IMG/VR virus record: IMGVR_UViG_2547132277_000001
DNA length: 27,860 nt
Source: a virus
Taxonomy: Duplodnaviria > Heunggongvirae > Uroviricota > Caudoviricetes
Reading direction: 5' to 3' (one strand)
Shown: positions 3,819-12,913 of the stretch, one piece after another
How the letters are laid out: every line of letters starts with the position of its first letter
Numbering within the stretch: the stretch's first letter is position 1
Program-made: the position numbers and the translations under genes
The notes under the pieces: generated by a model
The model's input: the letters and a program-made list of their open reading frames with translations, nothing else
Told to the model about the DNA's origin: nothing
The model's database searches: none

Positions 3819-3939
3819 AACAGGATGTCGCTTAAGCGAAATCTTAGTTAAGACGCTCCTATTAACACCCCACAGCGAACAAACACTTACCATATAAAAC
3901 AACTAGTTAAAGTAATTTTTAATGCAGTGAATTGCAGTG

Positions 3940-4989
3940 TTATGCAACCTCTGCCGCCACATTGTCGCCAACATACAGCGATAACGGATTGAGGGTTACA
4001 GCTTGTTCAAGGTGGTCAGGAGCAAAGTGCGCATACTTCATTGTTTCTCGAATATTGGCATGTCCGAGAATTTTCTGCAGCACCAGTATATTCCCTCCGT
4101 TCATCATAAAATGCGCACCAAAAGTATGACGCAAAACGTGCGTCTTCTGCCCTTCCGTCAATTCAATATTCGTTAGTTTGAGCATCTTTTTAAACTCCTG
4201 ATAGCAGGGTTTAAACATTCTGCCTTGACGTACGGACAACTCGTCGTACAGCCATTTAGGAATGGGAACTGTGCGATTCTTCTTACCTTTGGTTTTGGAG
4301 AACGTTAGTTTATATGGAGAAAGTTGAGGTCGGGTCAATCTCTCCGCTTCCCCCCATCGAGCGCCGGTTGCAAGGCACACCTTAACAATCATGGTGAGGT
4401 CTTCTTTGCCGTATTGCTCGCAGGCTCGAAACAGCTCCGGGAGCTGAGACAAAGTTAGCCAGGACATTTCTTTCTCAGCTTCTTTGAATACTCGGATCCC
4501 ATCAAGTGGATTGGGTAGGCTCCACTCCCCTAACCGGCGGAGCTCATTAAACACTGCTTCTAGGTATTGTTGTTCGCGATTGACGGTTATAGGTTTGGCG
4601 ATCCATTTCGAGGGGTCTTTATGATAACCATTGTCTATTTCACCACGTAATCGACGGTCACGATAATGAGCCCAGTCTTTCGCGGTAAGGCGAGATGCAA
4701 TCGGGTCGCCAAGTCCATTACATACGATTTGAAGCTTTGCAAACCTCGACTTACTGGCGACTAACGCTTGACCGTGCAAATTGTGCCAAAGCTGAATAAT
4801 CTCGCTTAAGCGTCGGCGGTCTTCTTTCTTGCCGAGCCACGGCTTATCTTCACTCTCGCTTTTGGTAAATGCTTCAAATGCCTCGGCCTCACCTTTGGTA
4901 TTGAATTGCCGACGTATACGCCGCCCTTCTCGACCATTTGGATAGAGTTCACACAACCATTTTCCACTTTTTTGTTTACTTACAGTCAT
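3940..4989 (-). CDS. int: P2-family tyrosine integrase
   Basis: 349-aa ORF. N-terminal RIRRQFNTKGEAEAFEAF and C-terminal GARWGEAERL ... HVLRHTFGAHFMMNGGNILVLQKILGHANIRETMKYAHFAPDHLEQAVTLNPL match the P2 Int pattern, including the catalytic R..H-x-x-R..Y region. Confidence 0.9.
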   Translation of the reverse strand: MTVSKQKSGKWLCELYPNGREGRRIRRQFNTKGEAEAFEAFTKSESEDKPWLGKKEDRRRLSEIIQLWHNLHGQALVASKSRFAKLQIVCNGLGDPIASRLTAKDWAHYRDRRLRGEIDNGYHKDPSKWIAKPITVNREQQYLEAVFNELRRLGEWSLPNPLDGIRVFKEAEKEMSWLTLSQLPELFRACEQYGKEDLTMIVKVCLATGARWGEAERLTRPQLSPYKLTFSKTKGKKNRTVPIPKWLYDELSVRQGRMFKPCYQEFKKMLKLTNIELTEGQKTHVLRHTFGAHFMMNGGNILVLQKILGHANIRETMKYAHFAPDHLEQAVTLNPLSLYVGDNVAAEVA

Positions 4990-5013: not shown

Positions 5014-5352
5014 TTAATTACAAAGGGCTGTAGCGGCATCAATCACCGGTGAAATTGAAATTTTAACGCCGTCATACTCAGGGTCATCCTTCCATACGTC
5101 ATCTAAGTTAGACCCCTCCAGCTTTCCTGATTTAACAGCATCTACCGCCATGCCATTCAGAGGATATCTATCATCAGTTTTGATGTCATACACAAAAGCA
5201 TAAGCACGGTTAACACATGATACCTTTGCCTTTTCAAAGGTTAGAGGCCACTTGTCACCATATGCAGCGCCGTCTATCTCTTTAAACTTCTCAGCGGCTA
5301 TGGCTGAGGAAGAAAGTGCAATGCAGACTATCGCAAATATAAACTTTTTCAT
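5014..5352 (-). CDS. small secreted protein with cleavable signal peptide (moron between int and repressor); family uncertain
   Basis: AGGAG RBS. MKKFIFAIVCIALSSSAIA|AEK looks like a Sec signal peptide with an AXA cleavage site. Two Cys in the mature part. GC content is visibly lower than the flanking prophage genes. Confidence 0.6.
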   Translation of the reverse strand: MKKFIFAIVCIALSSSAIAAEKFKEIDGAAYGDKWPLTFEKAKVSCVNRAYAFVYDIKTDDRYPLNGMAVDAVKSGKLEGSNLDDVWKDDPEYDGVKISISPVIDAATALCN

Positions 5353-5361
5353 TACTGCTCC

Positions 5362-6207
5362 TTAAACATGCTTTTCCAAAGTAAAAATAACCGCACCTGA
5401 TGGTGTGATATCTGAAATATTACATTCAAACTCAGCAGACTTATTTGATAACCTGACCTTTCCGCCTGGCAACCTGATTACGTCAAAAACATCGAGTGCA
5501 CCATCAATACCAATAAGCCAGCGACCATTTCCTATCTTCGAGTTAGAACTATCAACAAGCCAAGATGTGCTCACACCATCAATAAACACTAAATCATCAG
5601 TATTTGATGGAACCATAGATATATCAGGAGTCCAGCGTCCGATATCTTTGAGTTCGCCCGCCTCGAGGCGGCACTTTCTAATCGTTAAAGCATTTGCCGG
5701 TTCACCATCATTACTGTTACGCATCTGGCCTTTTCCGGTTGATAACCATTCTAACGATACGCCAGTATCAAGGGCGCAAGTGACAACCACGTCACCGGGG
5801 AAAAAATCGCGTCTAACCCAAGTGCTTATAGTGCCGGAAGATATACCTAATAAATCTCCAAGCTCTTTTTGCAGAGTAAAACCATACGCATCGAGAATCC
5901 GACGCAGAACCGCCCTCCCTCCATTTGCCATGATTTCATCATAGAGTTGCTTACCTTTAAGCTTAGTTTTCACCACTTCAAATCTTGCATTTGCAAGCTC
6001 ACCATTAATTAGCCATCGCAGGTCAGCTCCAGTATCAAGAGCACACTCAACGAAAACGTTGCTAGGGATTACGTTTCTAGCAAGCCAGCTACTCACGTTG
6101 TTTGCATGTATGCCAAGCCTTTCGGCTAGTTCCTTTTGCTGCTTAAAGCCGTATGCAGAAAGGACACGTTCCAATGCGGCAGACGCATTAACATCATTTT
6201 TAGACAT
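5362..6207 (-). CDS. cI: CI-type prophage repressor with two tandem HTH DNA-binding domains and a C-terminal domain
   Basis: Start taken at ATG 6207 (MSKNDVNAS...). Two homologous repeats (ERVLSAYGFKQQKELAERLGI...VECALDTGADLRWL and RRILDAYGFTLQKELGDLLGI...VTCALDTGVSLEWL) are followed by a ~110-aa C-terminal domain. Position between int and the divergent early operon is as expected for a repressor. The ORF track extends the frame to 6396 but the first ATG with the conserved N-terminus is at 6207. Confidence 0.7.
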   Translation of the reverse strand: MSKNDVNASAALERVLSAYGFKQQKELAERLGIHANNVSSWLARNVIPSNVFVECALDTGADLRWLINGELANARFEVVKTKLKGKQLYDEIMANGGRAVLRRILDAYGFTLQKELGDLLGISSGTISTWVRRDFFPGDVVVTCALDTGVSLEWLSTGKGQMRNSNDGEPANALTIRKCRLEAGELKDIGRWTPDISMVPSNTDDLVFIDGVSTSWLVDSSNSKIGNGRWLIGIDGALDVFDVIRLPGGKVRLSNKSAEFECNISDITPSGAVIFTLEKHV

Positions 6208-6320: not shown

Positions 6321-6692
6321 ATGTCAGATGCAAAATCAATCTCGACGCACGACTCGCAAAACTCACAAAATCAAACTGTGCTGCTAGATCCAACACAGTT
6401 TGATGCCATCGTTACCGCCATGCTGCCAGCTCTACAGACAATGATTCGCTCCGCTATGTCAGACACGATGACTGTGAAAGACTTCGCCGCTACTCGCGGT
6501 GTTAGCGAGCGTCTGGTCTGGCAATGGCTCGATGAGGGAGTCCTTCTCAAAGCTCCGACCAAAGACTTTTCCAACAAAGAGGAAGCTGCTAAACGAAGCC
6601 GAACCCTCGTAAATGTAAAAGCATGGCGCGATAAGCTGACTCAACAAGCGATTGATTGTCGCTACATCGACCAGCGCACCGCTCTCAACTGA
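6321..6692 (+). CDS. Apl/Cox-like excisionase-type HTH regulator, first gene of the early rightward operon
   Basis: AGGAG RBS ~10 nt upstream. The C-terminal half has an AlpA/excisionase-like HTH (MTVKDFAATRGVSERLVWQWLDEG). Confidence 0.55.
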   Translation: MSDAKSISTHDSQNSQNQTVLLDPTQFDAIVTAMLPALQTMIRSAMSDTMTVKDFAATRGVSERLVWQWLDEGVLLKAPTKDFSNKEEAAKRSRTLVNVKAWRDKLTQQAIDCRYIDQRTALN

Positions 6693-8261: not shown

Positions 8262-10484
8262 TTGGCTGTTCAATTCGCTTATCCGTGGAACGTCCCACGG
8301 TCGGCAATCTCCAGCCCATACCTTACTTATGAGCAACAGCATCGCCGCGAACGTATGTTCGCGGCTTTGCTGCATGCAAAAAAGGTGCTTTCTCTCCAGC
8401 CCGACTGCGTGCGGTTAGATGTTTATCGCACTGCTGCGGTGCTGGAACAAAATCAGGGTAGTCAACGAGCCAATGCATTTTTAATCAACTTCTGCAAAAA
8501 GGCATTGCCGCGTCTTGAACTGGTCGCAAAAAAATACGAATGTGCTGGTATCAACAGCAAGGTATCAACCGCTGTTTTTGGAAGTCATTTTGATACTCAG
8601 CAAATGCAATATCTGTCGTCACGCATGGTTAATATGGTCGCCCGATATAACCGTCTCCCGGATATGTCGCGCGCTGATGTTGACCTGTTGGCCGCTGATA
8701 TTGCTAATTTCATTCGTGGTGAACTTGCCAACATTAATGACCGCGGATTCGGCGAGCTTAAAACGCTGTACACCTGGTATATTCGTGCTGGCTTTATTTC
8801 CCTCCAATTTAACGTTATCCCACCACATTGGGAGCGGGTTGAAAAAAAATATGTCGGTGCGGATGAAATCGCACCGGCTATCGCCAAAATGTTTAACGAT
8901 GGGTGGTGGCGCGGTCGTTTGCGCCGTGTTGCAGCTACGTGGCGCGAACACCTGCAAATTGCAGTCGGCAACGTCAGTAAGAAAAAAAACACTTACGCGA
9001 GTAAAAACTGCGTGACTGACTGGCGTGAACAAAAGCGCCGCACTCGTGAATTTCTCAAAGGTCTGGATCTCGAAGACGAAGACGGCAACCGTATCAGCCT
9101 GATTGAAAAATATGATGGCTCAGTTGCTAACCCTGCGATTCGCCGCTGTGAGCTCATGACCCGCATTCGTGGGTTTGAAAACATCTGTAATGAGCTCGGT
9201 TATGTCGGTGAGTTTTACACTCTAACCGCGCCGTCAAAATATCACGCCACGACTAAAGCCGGTTACCGTAACAGCAAATGGAGCGGTGCCAGCCCGGCTG
9301 ACACGCAAAACTATCTAACCGGTATCTGGGCGCGTATCCGTGCCAAACTACATCGGGAAGATGTCCGTATTTTCGGTATTCGTGTCGCCGAGCCTCATCA
9401 CGACGGCACTCCACACTGGCACATGCTGATGTTCATGCTGCCGGAAGATGTTGAATATGTTCGCTCCATCGTCCGTAAATACGCATGGAAAGAAGACCGC
9501 CACGAACTGAAAAGCGATAAATCCAAAAAAGCACGTTTCCACGCCGAGTCCATTGACCCGGAGAAAGGCAGCGCAACCGGCTATGTTGCTAAATACATTT
9601 CAAAAAATATCGACGGTTATGCTCTCGATGGTGAAACCGATGATGAAAGCGGTGAGCTGCTGAAAGAGACAGCCCCCGCCGTTTCAGCATGGGCTGCGCG
9701 CTGGCACATCCGTCAGTTTCAGTTTATCGGTGGTGCGCCGGTGACGGTTTACCGTGAGTTGCGTCGCCTCGCTGATACCGAAACCGCGCACGGACTGAGC
9801 GTTGAGTTTGCCGCCGTCTATGATGCCGCCGACGCTGGTGACTGGGCTGGTTATGTTAATGCTCAGGGTGGGCCGTTTGTCCGTCGCGATGATTTACAGG
9901 TGCGCACACTGTATGAACCGCGTACCGAGCTTAATCAGTACGGTGAGGAAACGGTATGTATTAAGGGAGTCTACGATTCCTCCATAGGTGCAGGGAGTCC
10001 GATTTTAACCCGGCTCACTCAGTGGAAGATTGTTCCGAAGCGTGCTGTTGATTTGGCCGTTGACCTTCAGGACGGCAAAGCCGTCCCTCGGAGTTCTGTC
10101 AATAACTGTACGGGAAGCGAAAGCGATCCACCGATACTGGATTTAACAAAACCACTGAGTCGGCGTGAAAGACGAGAATTGACCAACCGACTCAGGAAGC
10201 AAAAGCCAGCAGCACGGCGAAAATTCATCCACGGAACGGATGAGCAAAACGCAGCTATAGCTAAAACTATCGATGAGATACATCTGACAACCGGCATTAA
10301 TATCAGCCGGGGCGAAGCCCTGCACCTGATGGCCGGTGGTAAAAGTTGTTTTGATGGTAAATGGCTACGCGGAACGGCCAAAGGAGAAATATTTTCCGCA
10401 GCACCATCGCATGAGGCTAAAGCTCGGAAAATCCTTAATCGTGTTGCGGCGATGGCTGAAGCATCAAAACCAATACATGAGTAA
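8262..10484 (+). CDS. A: replication initiation endonuclease (P2 gene A family, rolling-circle)
   Basis: 740-aa ORF with the conserved EPHHDGTPHWHMLMF and GYVAKYISKNIDGYALDG motifs of P2 gpA. Start is a TTG at 8262 preceded by a GGGGGG RBS; the first in-frame ATG is 31 codons downstream, so the start is uncertain. Confidence 0.85.
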   Translation: MAVQFAYPWNVPRSAISSPYLTYEQQHRRERMFAALLHAKKVLSLQPDCVRLDVYRTAAVLEQNQGSQRANAFLINFCKKALPRLELVAKKYECAGINSKVSTAVFGSHFDTQQMQYLSSRMVNMVARYNRLPDMSRADVDLLAADIANFIRGELANINDRGFGELKTLYTWYIRAGFISLQFNVIPPHWERVEKKYVGADEIAPAIAKMFNDGWWRGRLRRVAATWREHLQIAVGNVSKKKNTYASKNCVTDWREQKRRTREFLKGLDLEDEDGNRISLIEKYDGSVANPAIRRCELMTRIRGFENICNELGYVGEFYTLTAPSKYHATTKAGYRNSKWSGASPADTQNYLTGIWARIRAKLHREDVRIFGIRVAEPHHDGTPHWHMLMFMLPEDVEYVRSIVRKYAWKEDRHELKSDKSKKARFHAESIDPEKGSATGYVAKYISKNIDGYALDGETDDESGELLKETAPAVSAWAARWHIRQFQFIGGAPVTVYRELRRLADTETAHGLSVEFAAVYDAADAGDWAGYVNAQGGPFVRRDDLQVRTLYEPRTELNQYGEETVCIKGVYDSSIGAGSPILTRLTQWKIVPKRAVDLAVDLQDGKAVPRSSVNNCTGSESDPPILDLTKPLSRRERRELTNRLRKQKPAARRKFIHGTDEQNAAIAKTIDEIHLTTGINISRGEALHLMAGGKSCFDGKWLRGTAKGEIFSAAPSHEAKARKILNRVAAMAEASKPIHE

Positions 10485-10544
10485 TTCATATCCATATCAT
10501 GCACATACAGCAATCGCTCTATTCGTTTTTTTCTTCCCATCTTT

Positions 10545-10577
10545 TGCCAATACGTGCTACTGTATAAATATACAGTA
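10545..10577 (+). promoter_or_regulatory. LexA-repressed (SOS) promoter: -35 TTGCCA, -10 TATACA, overlapping LexA box
   Basis: TACTGTATAAATATACAGTA (10558-10577) is a perfect CTGT-N8-ACAG SOS box overlapping a sigma70-like promoter directly upstream of ORF 10597. Confidence 0.75.
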
Positions 10578-10596
10578 ACCCTGTGGGAGGGATTTC

Positions 10597-10779
10597 ATGG
10601 TTGGCGAACATTTCAGCCGAACGCAGCAAAAGTGGGCTTGTGTGCAATTTATTGCCGAGGTATCTCTGATTGCAAACTGCAAGCCATCAGACTTAAAGCT
10701 CGCGCTCACTCTCATTGCAGACCTAGCAAACAGCGAGAATAACGAAACCGAAGATGATAATTTTTATAAGGCTGATTAG
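10597..10779 (+). CDS. SOS-controlled small protein, candidate Tum-like antirepressor N-terminal module
   Basis: GGGAGG RBS. 60-aa ORF immediately downstream of the LexA box. In 186 the LexA-controlled gene at this position is the tum antirepressor. Confidence 0.5.
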   Translation: MVGEHFSRTQQKWACVQFIAEVSLIANCKPSDLKLALTLIADLANSENNETEDDNFYKAD

Positions 10780-10782
10780 ATT

Positions 10783-11016
10783 ATGAGAATCAATATCACG
10801 TTGGATAAAGAGCAAAAAATTAGTCAGGCAACATTGGATGCACTTGAGGCTGAACTGTACCGCAATCTTCAACCTATTTACCCAAAGACTGCTATCCGAA
10901 TTCGCAAGGGCTCCGCTAATGGCGTTGAACTAAGCGGTTTGAAACTGGACGAAGATAAAAAACGAGTAATGGAAATCATGCAGCAGGTATGGGAGGACGA
11001 TAGCTGGCTGCATTAA
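10783..11016 (+). CDS. DinI-family protein
   Basis: MRINITLDKEQKISQATLDALEAELYRNLQPIYP...VMEIMQQVWEDDSWLH aligns by eye with E. coli DinI (MRIEVTIAKT...ALAGELSRRIQ...ISEILQETWE). Confidence 0.85.
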   Translation: MRINITLDKEQKISQATLDALEAELYRNLQPIYPKTAIRIRKGSANGVELSGLKLDEDKKRVMEIMQQVWEDDSWLH

Positions 11017-11149
11017 CAAACGCCGCCGGAGCTGAAACTCGCTTTCAGGTCTGGCGGGGTTGAACAACGAGCTACGCGAGGCGTTAGCCGGTCATAGCGT
11101 CGCAAATACTTCAACCGTCTGCTGGTTAAATAATTCGAGGTTTTTGGAC

Positions 11150-11344
11150 ATGCAAAATCCCCTTTCATCGAAAAATGACCCGTTTGCCGATTGGGCAAAG
11201 AATCTGACTTTAATGGCTTTAAATAACGACCTGAGCTCTCGCGAGGTGGAAAGCTACACCGCAAAAATGGTCGGGCAGGCCGGTAAAGATGAGCTATCAG
11301 TCGTTATCAAACACCTGTTAAATCACATCAGAATGCGCAAATAA
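11150..11344 (+). CDS. hypothetical protein
   Basis: GAGG RBS then ATG 11150, 64 aa. The ORF track begins this frame at a TTG at 11060, which I consider less likely. Confidence 0.4.
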   Translation: MQNPLSSKNDPFADWAKNLTLMALNNDLSSREVESYTAKMVGQAGKDELSVVIKHLLNHIRMRK

Positions 11345-11360
11345 GAGGAACTATATAAAT

Positions 11361-11462
11361 ATGTTATCTCTCGTTTATGAAAATCCGTGGACGACGATTT
11401 TTCTGATGATTGTTGCCAGCATGTGCCTCAACAGTGTTATTGGCGCATTGCGCGGCCATTAA
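11361..11462 (+). CDS. 33-aa hydrophobic peptide (predicted single TM helix)
   Basis: Strong RBS AAGAGGA 11 nt upstream of ATG. MLSLVYENPWTTIFLMIVASMCLNSVIGALRGH. Followed within 20 nt by a canonical terminator. Confidence 0.35.
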   Translation: MLSLVYENPWTTIFLMIVASMCLNSVIGALRGH

Positions 11463-11480
11463 TCGCGACAAAACCAGACT

Positions 11481-11511
11481 AAAACCGGCACCCTGAATGC
11501 CGGTTTTTTTA
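11481..11511 (+). terminator. rho-independent terminator
   Basis: ACCGGCA-CCCTGAA-TGCCGGT stem-loop followed by TTTTTTT. Confidence 0.7.
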
Positions 11512-11670
11512 TGCCATTTTTCCGCGAATTTCCCGTTTTTTAGTCGTGCATGCATCAGGTGCATGGTTTTGCATGCGTCAGTCTTGCCCGTTCTGTCCGT
11601 GCGCCGCCAGAGCTAGCGCGGATCCAGAGTTGTCATGCAACTGCATTAAAACCGCCCCATAAAGCGGGCA

Positions 11671-11689
11671 GGCGTGGCGGGGAAAGCAT
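11671..11689. other. phage cos site (19-nt cohesive-end sequence of the P2/186 family)
   Basis: GGCGTGGCGGGGAAAGCAT closely matches the P2 cohesive end GGCGAGGCGGGGAAAGCAC as I remember it. It lies between the early/replication block and the portal-terminase genes, where cos sits in P2-type prophages. Confidence 0.7.
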
Positions 11690-11908
11690 TGCGCGCCAGC
11701 AGTGATGCGTAATAATAAAAATTATCCTCTGAGCGCGTCGTGATGGCGCTGTCGTGGTCGCTGCTGGTTCGTTGGTGGTCGAGTGTGTTCGTGCGCGTGA
11801 GACGCATCTGATGCGTGATGGTGGTGTGCATGGAAAAGCCACCAGGAGCAGCGGCTTTACAGGAGTGGCAGGATTCAAACTGCTAATTATGTTTCTACTA
11901 TGATTAAA

Positions 11909-12913
11909 CTAATTTACATGTATGTAGAGTTCACCGTCGCCAGACCAATCGGGACACTCTAAAACAAGCCCAAACTGCTTGAATATTTCATCAATGATTA
12001 TTGTTATCTCCCGAAAATCACCAAAACCTGTAATGTGCTGGTCATTAAACTTCCCATAAAGATTCTGAAAAGCAATGCCTAATTCTGATAATTGATATCT
12101 TATCTTTGAGTTGGATAGTGTAAGGGATAGCTTTGGATCGTATTCTTTAATATTGATGTTTAGAGAATGGACATAACCCATCGCATAAGCATAAGAGTTG
12201 ATGATTAGCCTGATACGTTTTTTTACTTCAAGATACATGTCATTCAGAGAAAGATTACCGTACTTATAACCCCAGATGAGTTTTTCAATCTCGTCAGATA
12301 CTTCATTTACAACAGTGTCAAGATTCTCTAAAAATAAATCGATAGTTTCTTGAGGGGCAGACCCCGAAGACATGTAATTAGCGAGATATTCAGACCATGC
12401 ACGCGTGGCTGAGATAAGAAGCGCGCTACCATACTCGTTGACTGTAAAGTTTTGGGCTAAGCATGTTAGTAAGTTTTTTCATGTACGTGCACTAATTCAT
12501 GGTGAATGCGATGGATGACTGCGAGGTATCCTTCTTCTTTCAGTTTTAAGAAGCTACCATCATTGAAAAGCTCAACAAAAAAAATCAATCGATAGCACAA
12601 GGGTATATTCTTCATATAGCCCATCATTGCCAATTTTTGTTACTAACTGCCCGACGGCTGCGCCCTGTTTGCTATTGGTAAATGAACTAGGGGATTTGTG
12701 TTGGTAAGAGGATGTTACCTTTTGAAGAGCTTCACTGAAGTTATAGGAAACAATCACGCATTTTAATTTGGAGATATCAAGATTGAGATTCTTTGTTAAA
12801 GCTCGGATAGCTTCTAGTGTGAAATTACCGATATTATTTGCTTCTTGCTCAGTAGCGAAACCTTCGAGGGTTATTTTAAAATCAGTTTCCAAAATATTAA
12901 TCTCCGCGCCCAT
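11909..12913 (-). pseudogene. AT-rich cargo gene of unknown function, apparently one ~325-aa ORF interrupted by two frameshifts at homopolymer tracts
   Basis: Minus-strand ORFs 12913-12572 and 12373-11909 are in the same frame. The 198-bp gap between them is open in the -1 frame (FFVELFNDGSFLKLKEEGYLAVIHRIHHELVHVHEKTY) and then again in the original frame (KNLLTCLAQNFTVNEYGSALLISATRAWSEYLANYM-). The frame switches coincide with a T8 run (plus 12577-12584) and an A6 run (plus 12474-12479). Confidence 0.5.

Follow-up and report, generated by a model that had tools for sequence, protein, structure and literature searches.

The DNA analysed here, called the window throughout, is one stretch of 27,860 nucleotides, which is host DNA up to about position 3900 and a P2/186-like prophage beyond it. 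The locus of interest is a small operon directly downstream of the replication gene A; gpA ends at 10484 and the first gene of the operon, tumA, starts at 10597, in a layout like that of phage PSP3. The features needed in the following are given by their positions in the window.

3940-4989, minus strand: integrase, the first prophage gene
5014-5352, minus strand: gene between int and cI whose product of 112 aa has a DUF2511 domain (E 1.1e-18)
5362-6207, minus strand: cI, repressor of 281 aa, assigned by Pfam
5728-5916: second helix-turn-helix domain of CI (HTH-2), residues 98-160
Between cI and gene A: apl and cII (Phage_CP76), followed by DUF5347, DUF2732 and DksA-type zinc-finger genes
8262-10484: replication gene A, ORF of 740 aa (Phage_GPA, E 2e-130)
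10534-10539 (-35, TTCCCA) and 10558-10563 (-10, TACTGT), plus strand: putative p95-like SOS promoter with an 18-nt spacer, placed by homology only
10558-10577: putative LexA operator (SOS box) TACTGTATAAATATACAGTA, with one departure from the 20-nt consensus and with the LexA site of phage 186 as its homologue
10560-10575: core of this operator, CTGT-N8-ACAG, CTGTATAAATATACAG, a pattern that occurs once in the window
10585-10591, plus strand: Shine-Dalgarno sequence GGGAGGG, 5 nt before the ATG of tumA, read from the sequence
10597-10779, plus strand: tumA, 60 aa, presumed CI antirepressor, with ATG at 10597 and TAG at 10777-10779
10783-11016, plus strand: tumB, 77 aa, DinI family, with ATG at 10783 and TAA ending at 11016
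11019-11090, plus strand: conserved element of ~69 nt, consisting of a GC-rich hairpin at 11019-11061 and the motif GGTTGAACAACGAGC..CGCGAGGCGTTAG
11671-11688: core of cos, GGCGTGGCGGGGAAAGCA, with 0 chance matches expected
3' of cos: portal gene

Since the cos site lies ~650 bp downstream of tumB, the tum operon closes the series of conserved transcription units towards the right end of the linear phage genome. The Shine-Dalgarno sequence of tumA appears to be strong. The TAG stop of tumA is separated from the ATG of tumB by ATT alone, so that the two genes are in the same reading frame with a gap of 3 nt. The only sequence resembling a ribosome binding site of tumB is an AAGG 11 nt before the ATG, which is not well spaced, and we infer from the sequence that translation of tumB is probably coupled to termination of tumA.

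The operator was evaluated in two forms. The core 16-mer CTGT-N8-ACAG is by itself weak evidence for a LexA box, with 0.29 matches expected by chance and at least one match in 25 of 100 shuffled sequences. The full 20-mer matches the LexA consensus TACTG(TA)5CAGTA at 19 of 20 positions, while none of the 100 shuffles contained a match with three or fewer mismatches. With these figures the LexA box that an earlier note on this DNA had placed before the two ORFs was confirmed. The putative box ends 20 nt upstream of the 60-aa ORF, is identical to the box of PSP3 and aligns with the annotated LexA site of 186. A survey of 32 loci (29 from genomes, two from phage records and the window itself) showed a CTG-N10-CAG box in every locus (32/32; ~25 genera or species), at 35-41 nt before tumA. 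The segment 10558-10577 thus has the appearance of an operator of the LexA (SOS) regulon, being a palindrome with an AT-rich spacer that lies over the putative promoter.

A generic sigma-70 consensus scan of positions 10300-12000 found no site, and the promoter was therefore assigned by homology only. It aligns column for column with the annotated p95 promoter of 186 (-35 TTCACA, -10 TACTGT), although both putative hexamers are poor matches to the consensus. The -10 hexamer is identical in the window and in 186, and sits inside the LexA operator. The earlier proposal that the box overlaps a promoter stands in this form, by homology and not by consensus, since it is the aligned -10 that falls within the operator; the hexamers which that proposal implied do not hold. 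A promoter beginning at 10545 (TTGCCA) had to be given up, as the -35/-10 pair that it implies has an unworkable spacing.

Comparison with known phages placed the locus among described systems. The DNA around the locus (621 bases; identity over 10480-11087) is 94-96% identical to Salmonella phages PSP3, SEN1, SW9 and SI22, Escherichia phage Midge and Klebsiella phage RCIP0057. The record of PSP3 (GenBank AY135486; Eganvirus PsP3) contains the same two ORFs with equal lengths and spacing, and describes tumA as 'similar to 5' end 186 tum; UV induction of prophage' and tumB as 'similar to dinI and 3' end of 186 tum'. PSP3 shares with the window the site after gene A, the LexA box CTGTATAAATATACAG, the TAG-ATT-ATG junction and a long CI with tandem HTH domains. 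TumA is 98.3% identical to its PSP3 counterpart (60/60 residues aligned) and 100% identical to that of phage 613R3, and TumB is 99% identical to TumB of PSP3. In phage 186 the likeness extends to the homologous p95 promoter and LexA operator, and to the placement of tum after gene A.

The literature carries the same arrangement. A stop codon splits tum in PSP3 and Fels-2 (Lemire et al., 2011; PMC3121763). The antirepressor of PSP3 is the upstream gene, as relayed in PMC3121763 from a personal communication of E. Christie in Bunny et al. (2002). Tum of 186 is known from the literature as a LexA-controlled antirepressor; it binds CI and blocks operator binding (PMC3121763). A classification paper attributes the UV inducibility of 186, PSP3, Fels-2 and SopEphi to tum (PMC2771037). 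Because both the PSP3 record and the literature hold this arrangement, the locus of the window is an instance of it: a PSP3-type tumA/tumB operon, already described and ordinary for PSP3/186-like prophages, which leaves the current understanding unchanged. The earlier view of a Tum-like, LexA-controlled module at the position of 186 tum is well supported by the PSP3 annotation of tumA and tumB and by Lemire et al. (2011).

The second ORF was readily classified. TumB matches PF06183 with an E-value of 7.4e-24 and 84.3 bits (gathering cut-off 24.2), aligns over its full length with DinI of E. coli (PDB 1GHH; residues 1-75, E 2.6e-9) and covers positions 71-148 of the 151 positions of the phrog_189 profile. 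A 60-aa ORF followed 3 nt on by a DinI-family ORF of 77 aa, as noted earlier, was recovered at the positions given. The part of 186 Tum that corresponds to TumB is residues 71-145, with an identity of 47% (E 5e-28). An internal GTG in the 186 gene gives rise to a DinI-only 'truncated Tum', and this GTG aligns exactly with the first residue of TumB.

The first ORF was more difficult to place. TumA has no Pfam family, and is labelled 'unknown function' in PHROGs (phrog_1993) and 'hypothetical protein' in RefSeq; transfer of the TumA name from PSP3 would for this reason help annotation. BLASTP did not align TumA with 186 Tum, and a profile comparison was therefore needed. An alignment of TumA relatives was compared by hhalign with an alignment of 186-type N-terminal halves, which matched TumA residues 16-53 to 186 Tum residues 14-51 with a probability of 88.6%, an E-value of 2.6e-6 and 29% identity over 38 columns only. 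The two share the pattern V-x-x-I-A ... C ... D ... A-L-x-L-I-A-[DE]-[IL]-A, and TumA and the N-terminal half of 186 Tum are probably distant homologues, as judged from this profile match. Alignment of both ORFs to 186 Tum, the check suggested with the original observation, thus came out clearly for TumB, whereas TumA was negative by BLASTP and was matched only at the level of profiles. TumA is acidic, and the AF2 model, of moderate confidence (pLDDT 70.8), predicts a hairpin of two helices (residues 8-25 and 30-51) and an acidic tail that is disordered. The TumA profile found no match among PDB sequences, and a Foldseek search of the model against the PDB returned generic helical hairpins only, with E-values above 1.

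The absence of BLASTP similarity to Tum, of a Pfam family and of a functional PHROG label would also suit a 60-aa protein with some other SOS-induced task, such as a toxin, an inhibitor of division or replication, or a superinfection exclusion factor, with a coincidental resemblance to Tum and with induction of the prophage depending on something else. We consider this joint reading very unlikely. Position, promoter and operator are those of 186 tum, the profile match runs in register with the N-terminal half of Tum, and the ORF shows tight co-occurrence and co-conservation with one domain of CI, as described below. UV induction through tum has moreover been reported for phages of the PSP3 group (PMC3121763, PMC2771037).

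The repressor itself also speaks against a 60-aa protein with another task. By Pfam, CI of the window consists of two tandem Phage_CI_repr HTH domains and a Phage_CI_C domain, and no S24 autocleavage peptidase domain was found in it; since CI lacks a cleavage domain, some antirepressor is needed. To our knowledge, repressors of the 186 CI family are not cleaved during induction. TumA is accordingly presumed, from its sequence relations together with the literature, to be the antirepressor of the cognate CI.

As to the division of the Tum-like function into two adjacent ORFs by a stop codon, the earlier reading of the locus was borne out: TAG and ATT stand between them. Whether the division is natural or a nonsense mutation had been left undecided in the earlier note. 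In 186, tum is a single fused ORF of 146 aa, and the window, with two ORFs and TAG between them, does not have the fused form of ~146 aa. The in-frame arrangement with only TAG and ATT between the genes, seen next to the single ORF of 186, could therefore be taken for a recent nonsense break in a fused tum, which would leave the module as a pseudogene or only partly functional. We regard such a break as barely conceivable. The layout of 60 and 77 aa with an identical junction is present in seven isolated phages and also in several genera. TumA relatives form 208 protein clusters across Enterobacteriaceae, almost all of them 59-62 aa long; greater lengths come from miscalled start codons, from which the reading frame runs across the LexA box. 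An exhaustive profile search among 1.84 billion representatives returned 35 relatives with lengths of about 58-74 aa, none of them fused to DinI; relatives of ~60 aa in more than 100 clusters, with none fused among these representatives, are not what a broken gene would leave. TumB keeps its own ATG, and nothing in the window corresponds to the ~24-aa linker of 186 Tum.

Substitution patterns gave a further argument. Counted by codon position, the differences within the tumA core numbered 2450/969/9268, and with this strong bias to third positions tumA appears to be under purifying selection; coding-type substitution patterns were found in both ORFs, against a recent break. The junctions in other loci vary as well. 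A DinI-like ORF directly 3' of tumA was present in 11 of the 31 evaluable loci and absent from the other 20. Eight of these eleven tumB-bearing loci have the 3-nt in-frame junction (stop TAG in 7/8, TAA in one), and the remaining three have gaps of 2, 13 and 17 nt that are out of frame, two of them with a Shine-Dalgarno sequence of their own for tumB; gaps of this kind again disagree with a broken tum. A recent nonsense mutation was rejected on the stand-alone TumA family, the lack of fusions and the coding-type substitutions, and the split of the two genes is, on these comparisons, natural. Of the two possibilities named earlier, the natural division is hence the one that held, by the same lack of fusions, the substitution patterns and the surveyed loci.

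The in-frame gap in 8/11 tumB loci, with TAG in 7/8, might also point to low-level readthrough of the TAG, by an amber suppressor or as a programmed event, so that a 186-like TumA-TumB fusion would be the real antirepressor. The 186 gene, which yields both a fused and a DinI-only product, fits this idea. It is nevertheless highly improbable. Programmed readthrough is not expected when other loci have tumB out of frame or lack it: three junctions are out of frame, and 20/31 loci without tumB still keep the LexA box and tumA. One in-frame locus has TAA as its stop. Further, the literature (PMC3121763) assigns antirepression to the upstream gene alone.

There were two observations that concern the modularity of these genes. 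Firstly, a sharp mosaic boundary was seen at the tumA/tumB junction. Phage 613R3 and the surveyed locus L005 have TumA 98-100% identical to that of the window and TumB only 47% identical, while the junction sequence AAGGCTGATTAGATTATGAGA is identical across the boundary in 613R3, L005 and the window; the tumB segments compared with window positions 10783-11016 were L002 1805-2035 and L005 8187-8417. On the strength of this boundary, tumB seems to be a module that is exchanged independently. The second observation was that the 186-type N-terminal half occurs also on its own, as a protein of 63 aa with the same LexA-box promoter in front of it (L034 1501-1692; also L035 and L036), where the next gene encodes a DNA methylase and a DinI gene is missing. 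The 186-type N-half is in this way found both fused and alone, and because it stands alone there too, the N-half appears to be an independent module in both subfamilies. Fused 186 Tum is, by the sequences compared, not the pattern for the PSP3-type TumA family. The survey and the modularity together indicate that the conserved unit is the LexA box with a small N-half protein, and that DinI is an optional accessory. In evolutionary terms, a stand-alone small antirepressor behind a LexA box would be the conserved core and the DinI gene an exchangeable add-on.

Taken together, we interpret the locus as the SOS induction operon of a PSP3-like prophage (Eganvirus, P2/186 group) that acts by antirepression, with a probability of about 0.85. 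In an undamaged cell, host LexA bound at 10558-10577 would cover the -10 of the p95-like promoter and keep the operon off. Upon DNA damage RecA would become active, LexA would cleave itself and the promoter would fire. TumA would then bind the prophage CI without cleaving it, CI would leave its operators and the lytic promoter would be derepressed. TumB would be translated from the tumA mRNA, probably by termination and reinitiation at TAG-ATT-ATG, and would likely modulate RecA filaments and hence how strong or how long the SOS signal is, being dispensable for antirepression itself. Induction by antirepression rather than by repressor cleavage, as proposed in the earlier note, is consistent with a CI that has no S24 domain, and is supported also by the match to PSP3 tumA/tumB and by Lemire et al. 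(2011). The likely induction route of the prophage in the window is thereby identified as SOS response plus antirepressor, not cleavage of the repressor.

In E. coli, DinI is a modulator of the RecA filament. TumB retains the acidic C-terminal helix motif W-E-D-D-S-W of that protein, and we infer from this homology alone that TumB acts on RecA filaments; it differs from E. coli DinI in being phage-encoded and, as predicted, co-transcribed with an antirepressor. A similar logic is known from Salmonella prophages Gifsy-1/2/3, whose operons carry a LexA-controlled dinI-antirepressor pair (gfoA/gftA; PMC3121763). In both systems a LexA box stands together with a DinI homologue and with a small antirepressor binding a non-cleavable repressor (PMC3121763), but in Gifsy dinI comes first, so that the gene order is reversed, the phages are lambdoid and the repressor belongs to another family.

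The relation between TumA and CI was considered domain by domain. Residues 100-274 of the window CI align to full-length 186 CI (PDB 2fjr), and since they cover all of it, the unusually long CI of the window begins with an additional HTH copy of ~90 residues; CI of 186, in contrast, has a single HTH domain. The long tandem-HTH form occurs also in PSP3, SW9, SEN1, Midge, RCIP0057, 613R3 and most TumA-bearing prophages. Conservation was expressed as mean pairwise identity over 17 loci, and amounted to 86% for the TumA core, 78% for CI HTH-2, 50% for CI HTH-1, 42% for the CI C-terminal domain and 22% for the linker between HTH-2 and the C-terminal domain. Within the phage collection, an HTH-2 at least 90.8% identical to that of the window was found only in ten records, all carrying TumA. 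The next-best HTH-2 (56.9%) belongs to Yersinia phage vB_YenM_31.17, which, alone among the remaining records, gives a weak TumA match. In the few TumA loci with a single-HTH CI, that domain aligns best to HTH-2. CI of PSP3 differs from that of the window, with 73% identity overall and 91% in HTH-2, and because of the low overall identity the two phages are probably heteroimmune.

This pattern suggests that TumA may dock on HTH-2 of CI. The co-conservation could also stem from kinship of the phages, or from conserved operator or DNA binding, instead of contact between the proteins. A wider proposal, that TumA-type antirepressors recognise HTH-2 as a dedicated conserved receptor while the variable HTH-1 sets immunity specificity, is put forward here only tentatively, and we hold it for rather doubtful. 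If it were true, a single TumA could act in trans on several PSP3-like prophages that are heteroimmune and induce them, in an SOS cross-talk like that of Gifsy, and the tandem-HTH CI would separate operator specificity from sensitivity to the antirepressor. The pairing of TumA with HTH-2 of a tandem-HTH CI might be the sole new lead from this locus.

Downstream of tumB, the locus of the window differs from its relatives. The hairpin at 11019-11061 has a predicted dG of -28.6 kcal/mol (z -4.6) and belongs to the ~69-nt element, whose motif conserved across loci reads GGTTGAACAAC..GC...GCGAGGCGTTAG. The hairpin is not followed by a U-run, and the terminator scan did not list it. Its candidacy as the terminator of the operon was rejected as unproven, given the missing U-run. 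A search of Rfam with the element, under gathering and E-value thresholds, gave nothing relevant. One copy of the element is present in 186, after orf97, a gene downstream in the operon that distinguishes 186 from the window, and two copies are present in PSP3 and the closest E. coli prophages; copies were located at L001 3544-3608 and 3949-4013, L033 841-909 and 1246-1314, and L003 ~6343-6413. In PSP3 and those prophages, the element forms a direct repeat 405 bp apart that flanks a gene for 69 aa, the PSP3 gp37 homologue (phrog_11386). PSP3 thus has a gp37-like gene between two repeat copies 3' of tumB, whereas the window has no such gene and a single, hybrid copy of the element. With the single hybrid copy and the missing 69-aa gene, it looks like a deletion between the repeats has taken place in the window.

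A few observations were made in the wider surroundings of the operon. The gene with the DUF2511 domain is probably a lysogenic-conversion cargo gene. The N-terminus of its 112-aa product resembles a signal peptide. Between cos and the portal gene, on the minus strand at 11909-12913, there are two ORFs of 154 and 113 aa, whose counterpart in a 99.5%-identical prophage of E. coli JKHS016 is one gene of 327 aa (phrog_11743). The window differs from that gene by two single-base indels, near 12473 and 12577, which shift the frame between the two ORFs and point to a pseudogene or else to an error in the sequencing. In the host DNA upstream of the integrase, two overlapping ORFs of 167 and 91 aa on the minus strand at 1199-1896 resemble what we take to be InsB and InsA of IS1. 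The neighbours of these putative IS1 ORFs encode a membrane protein of 408 aa and an OmpA-like lipoprotein.
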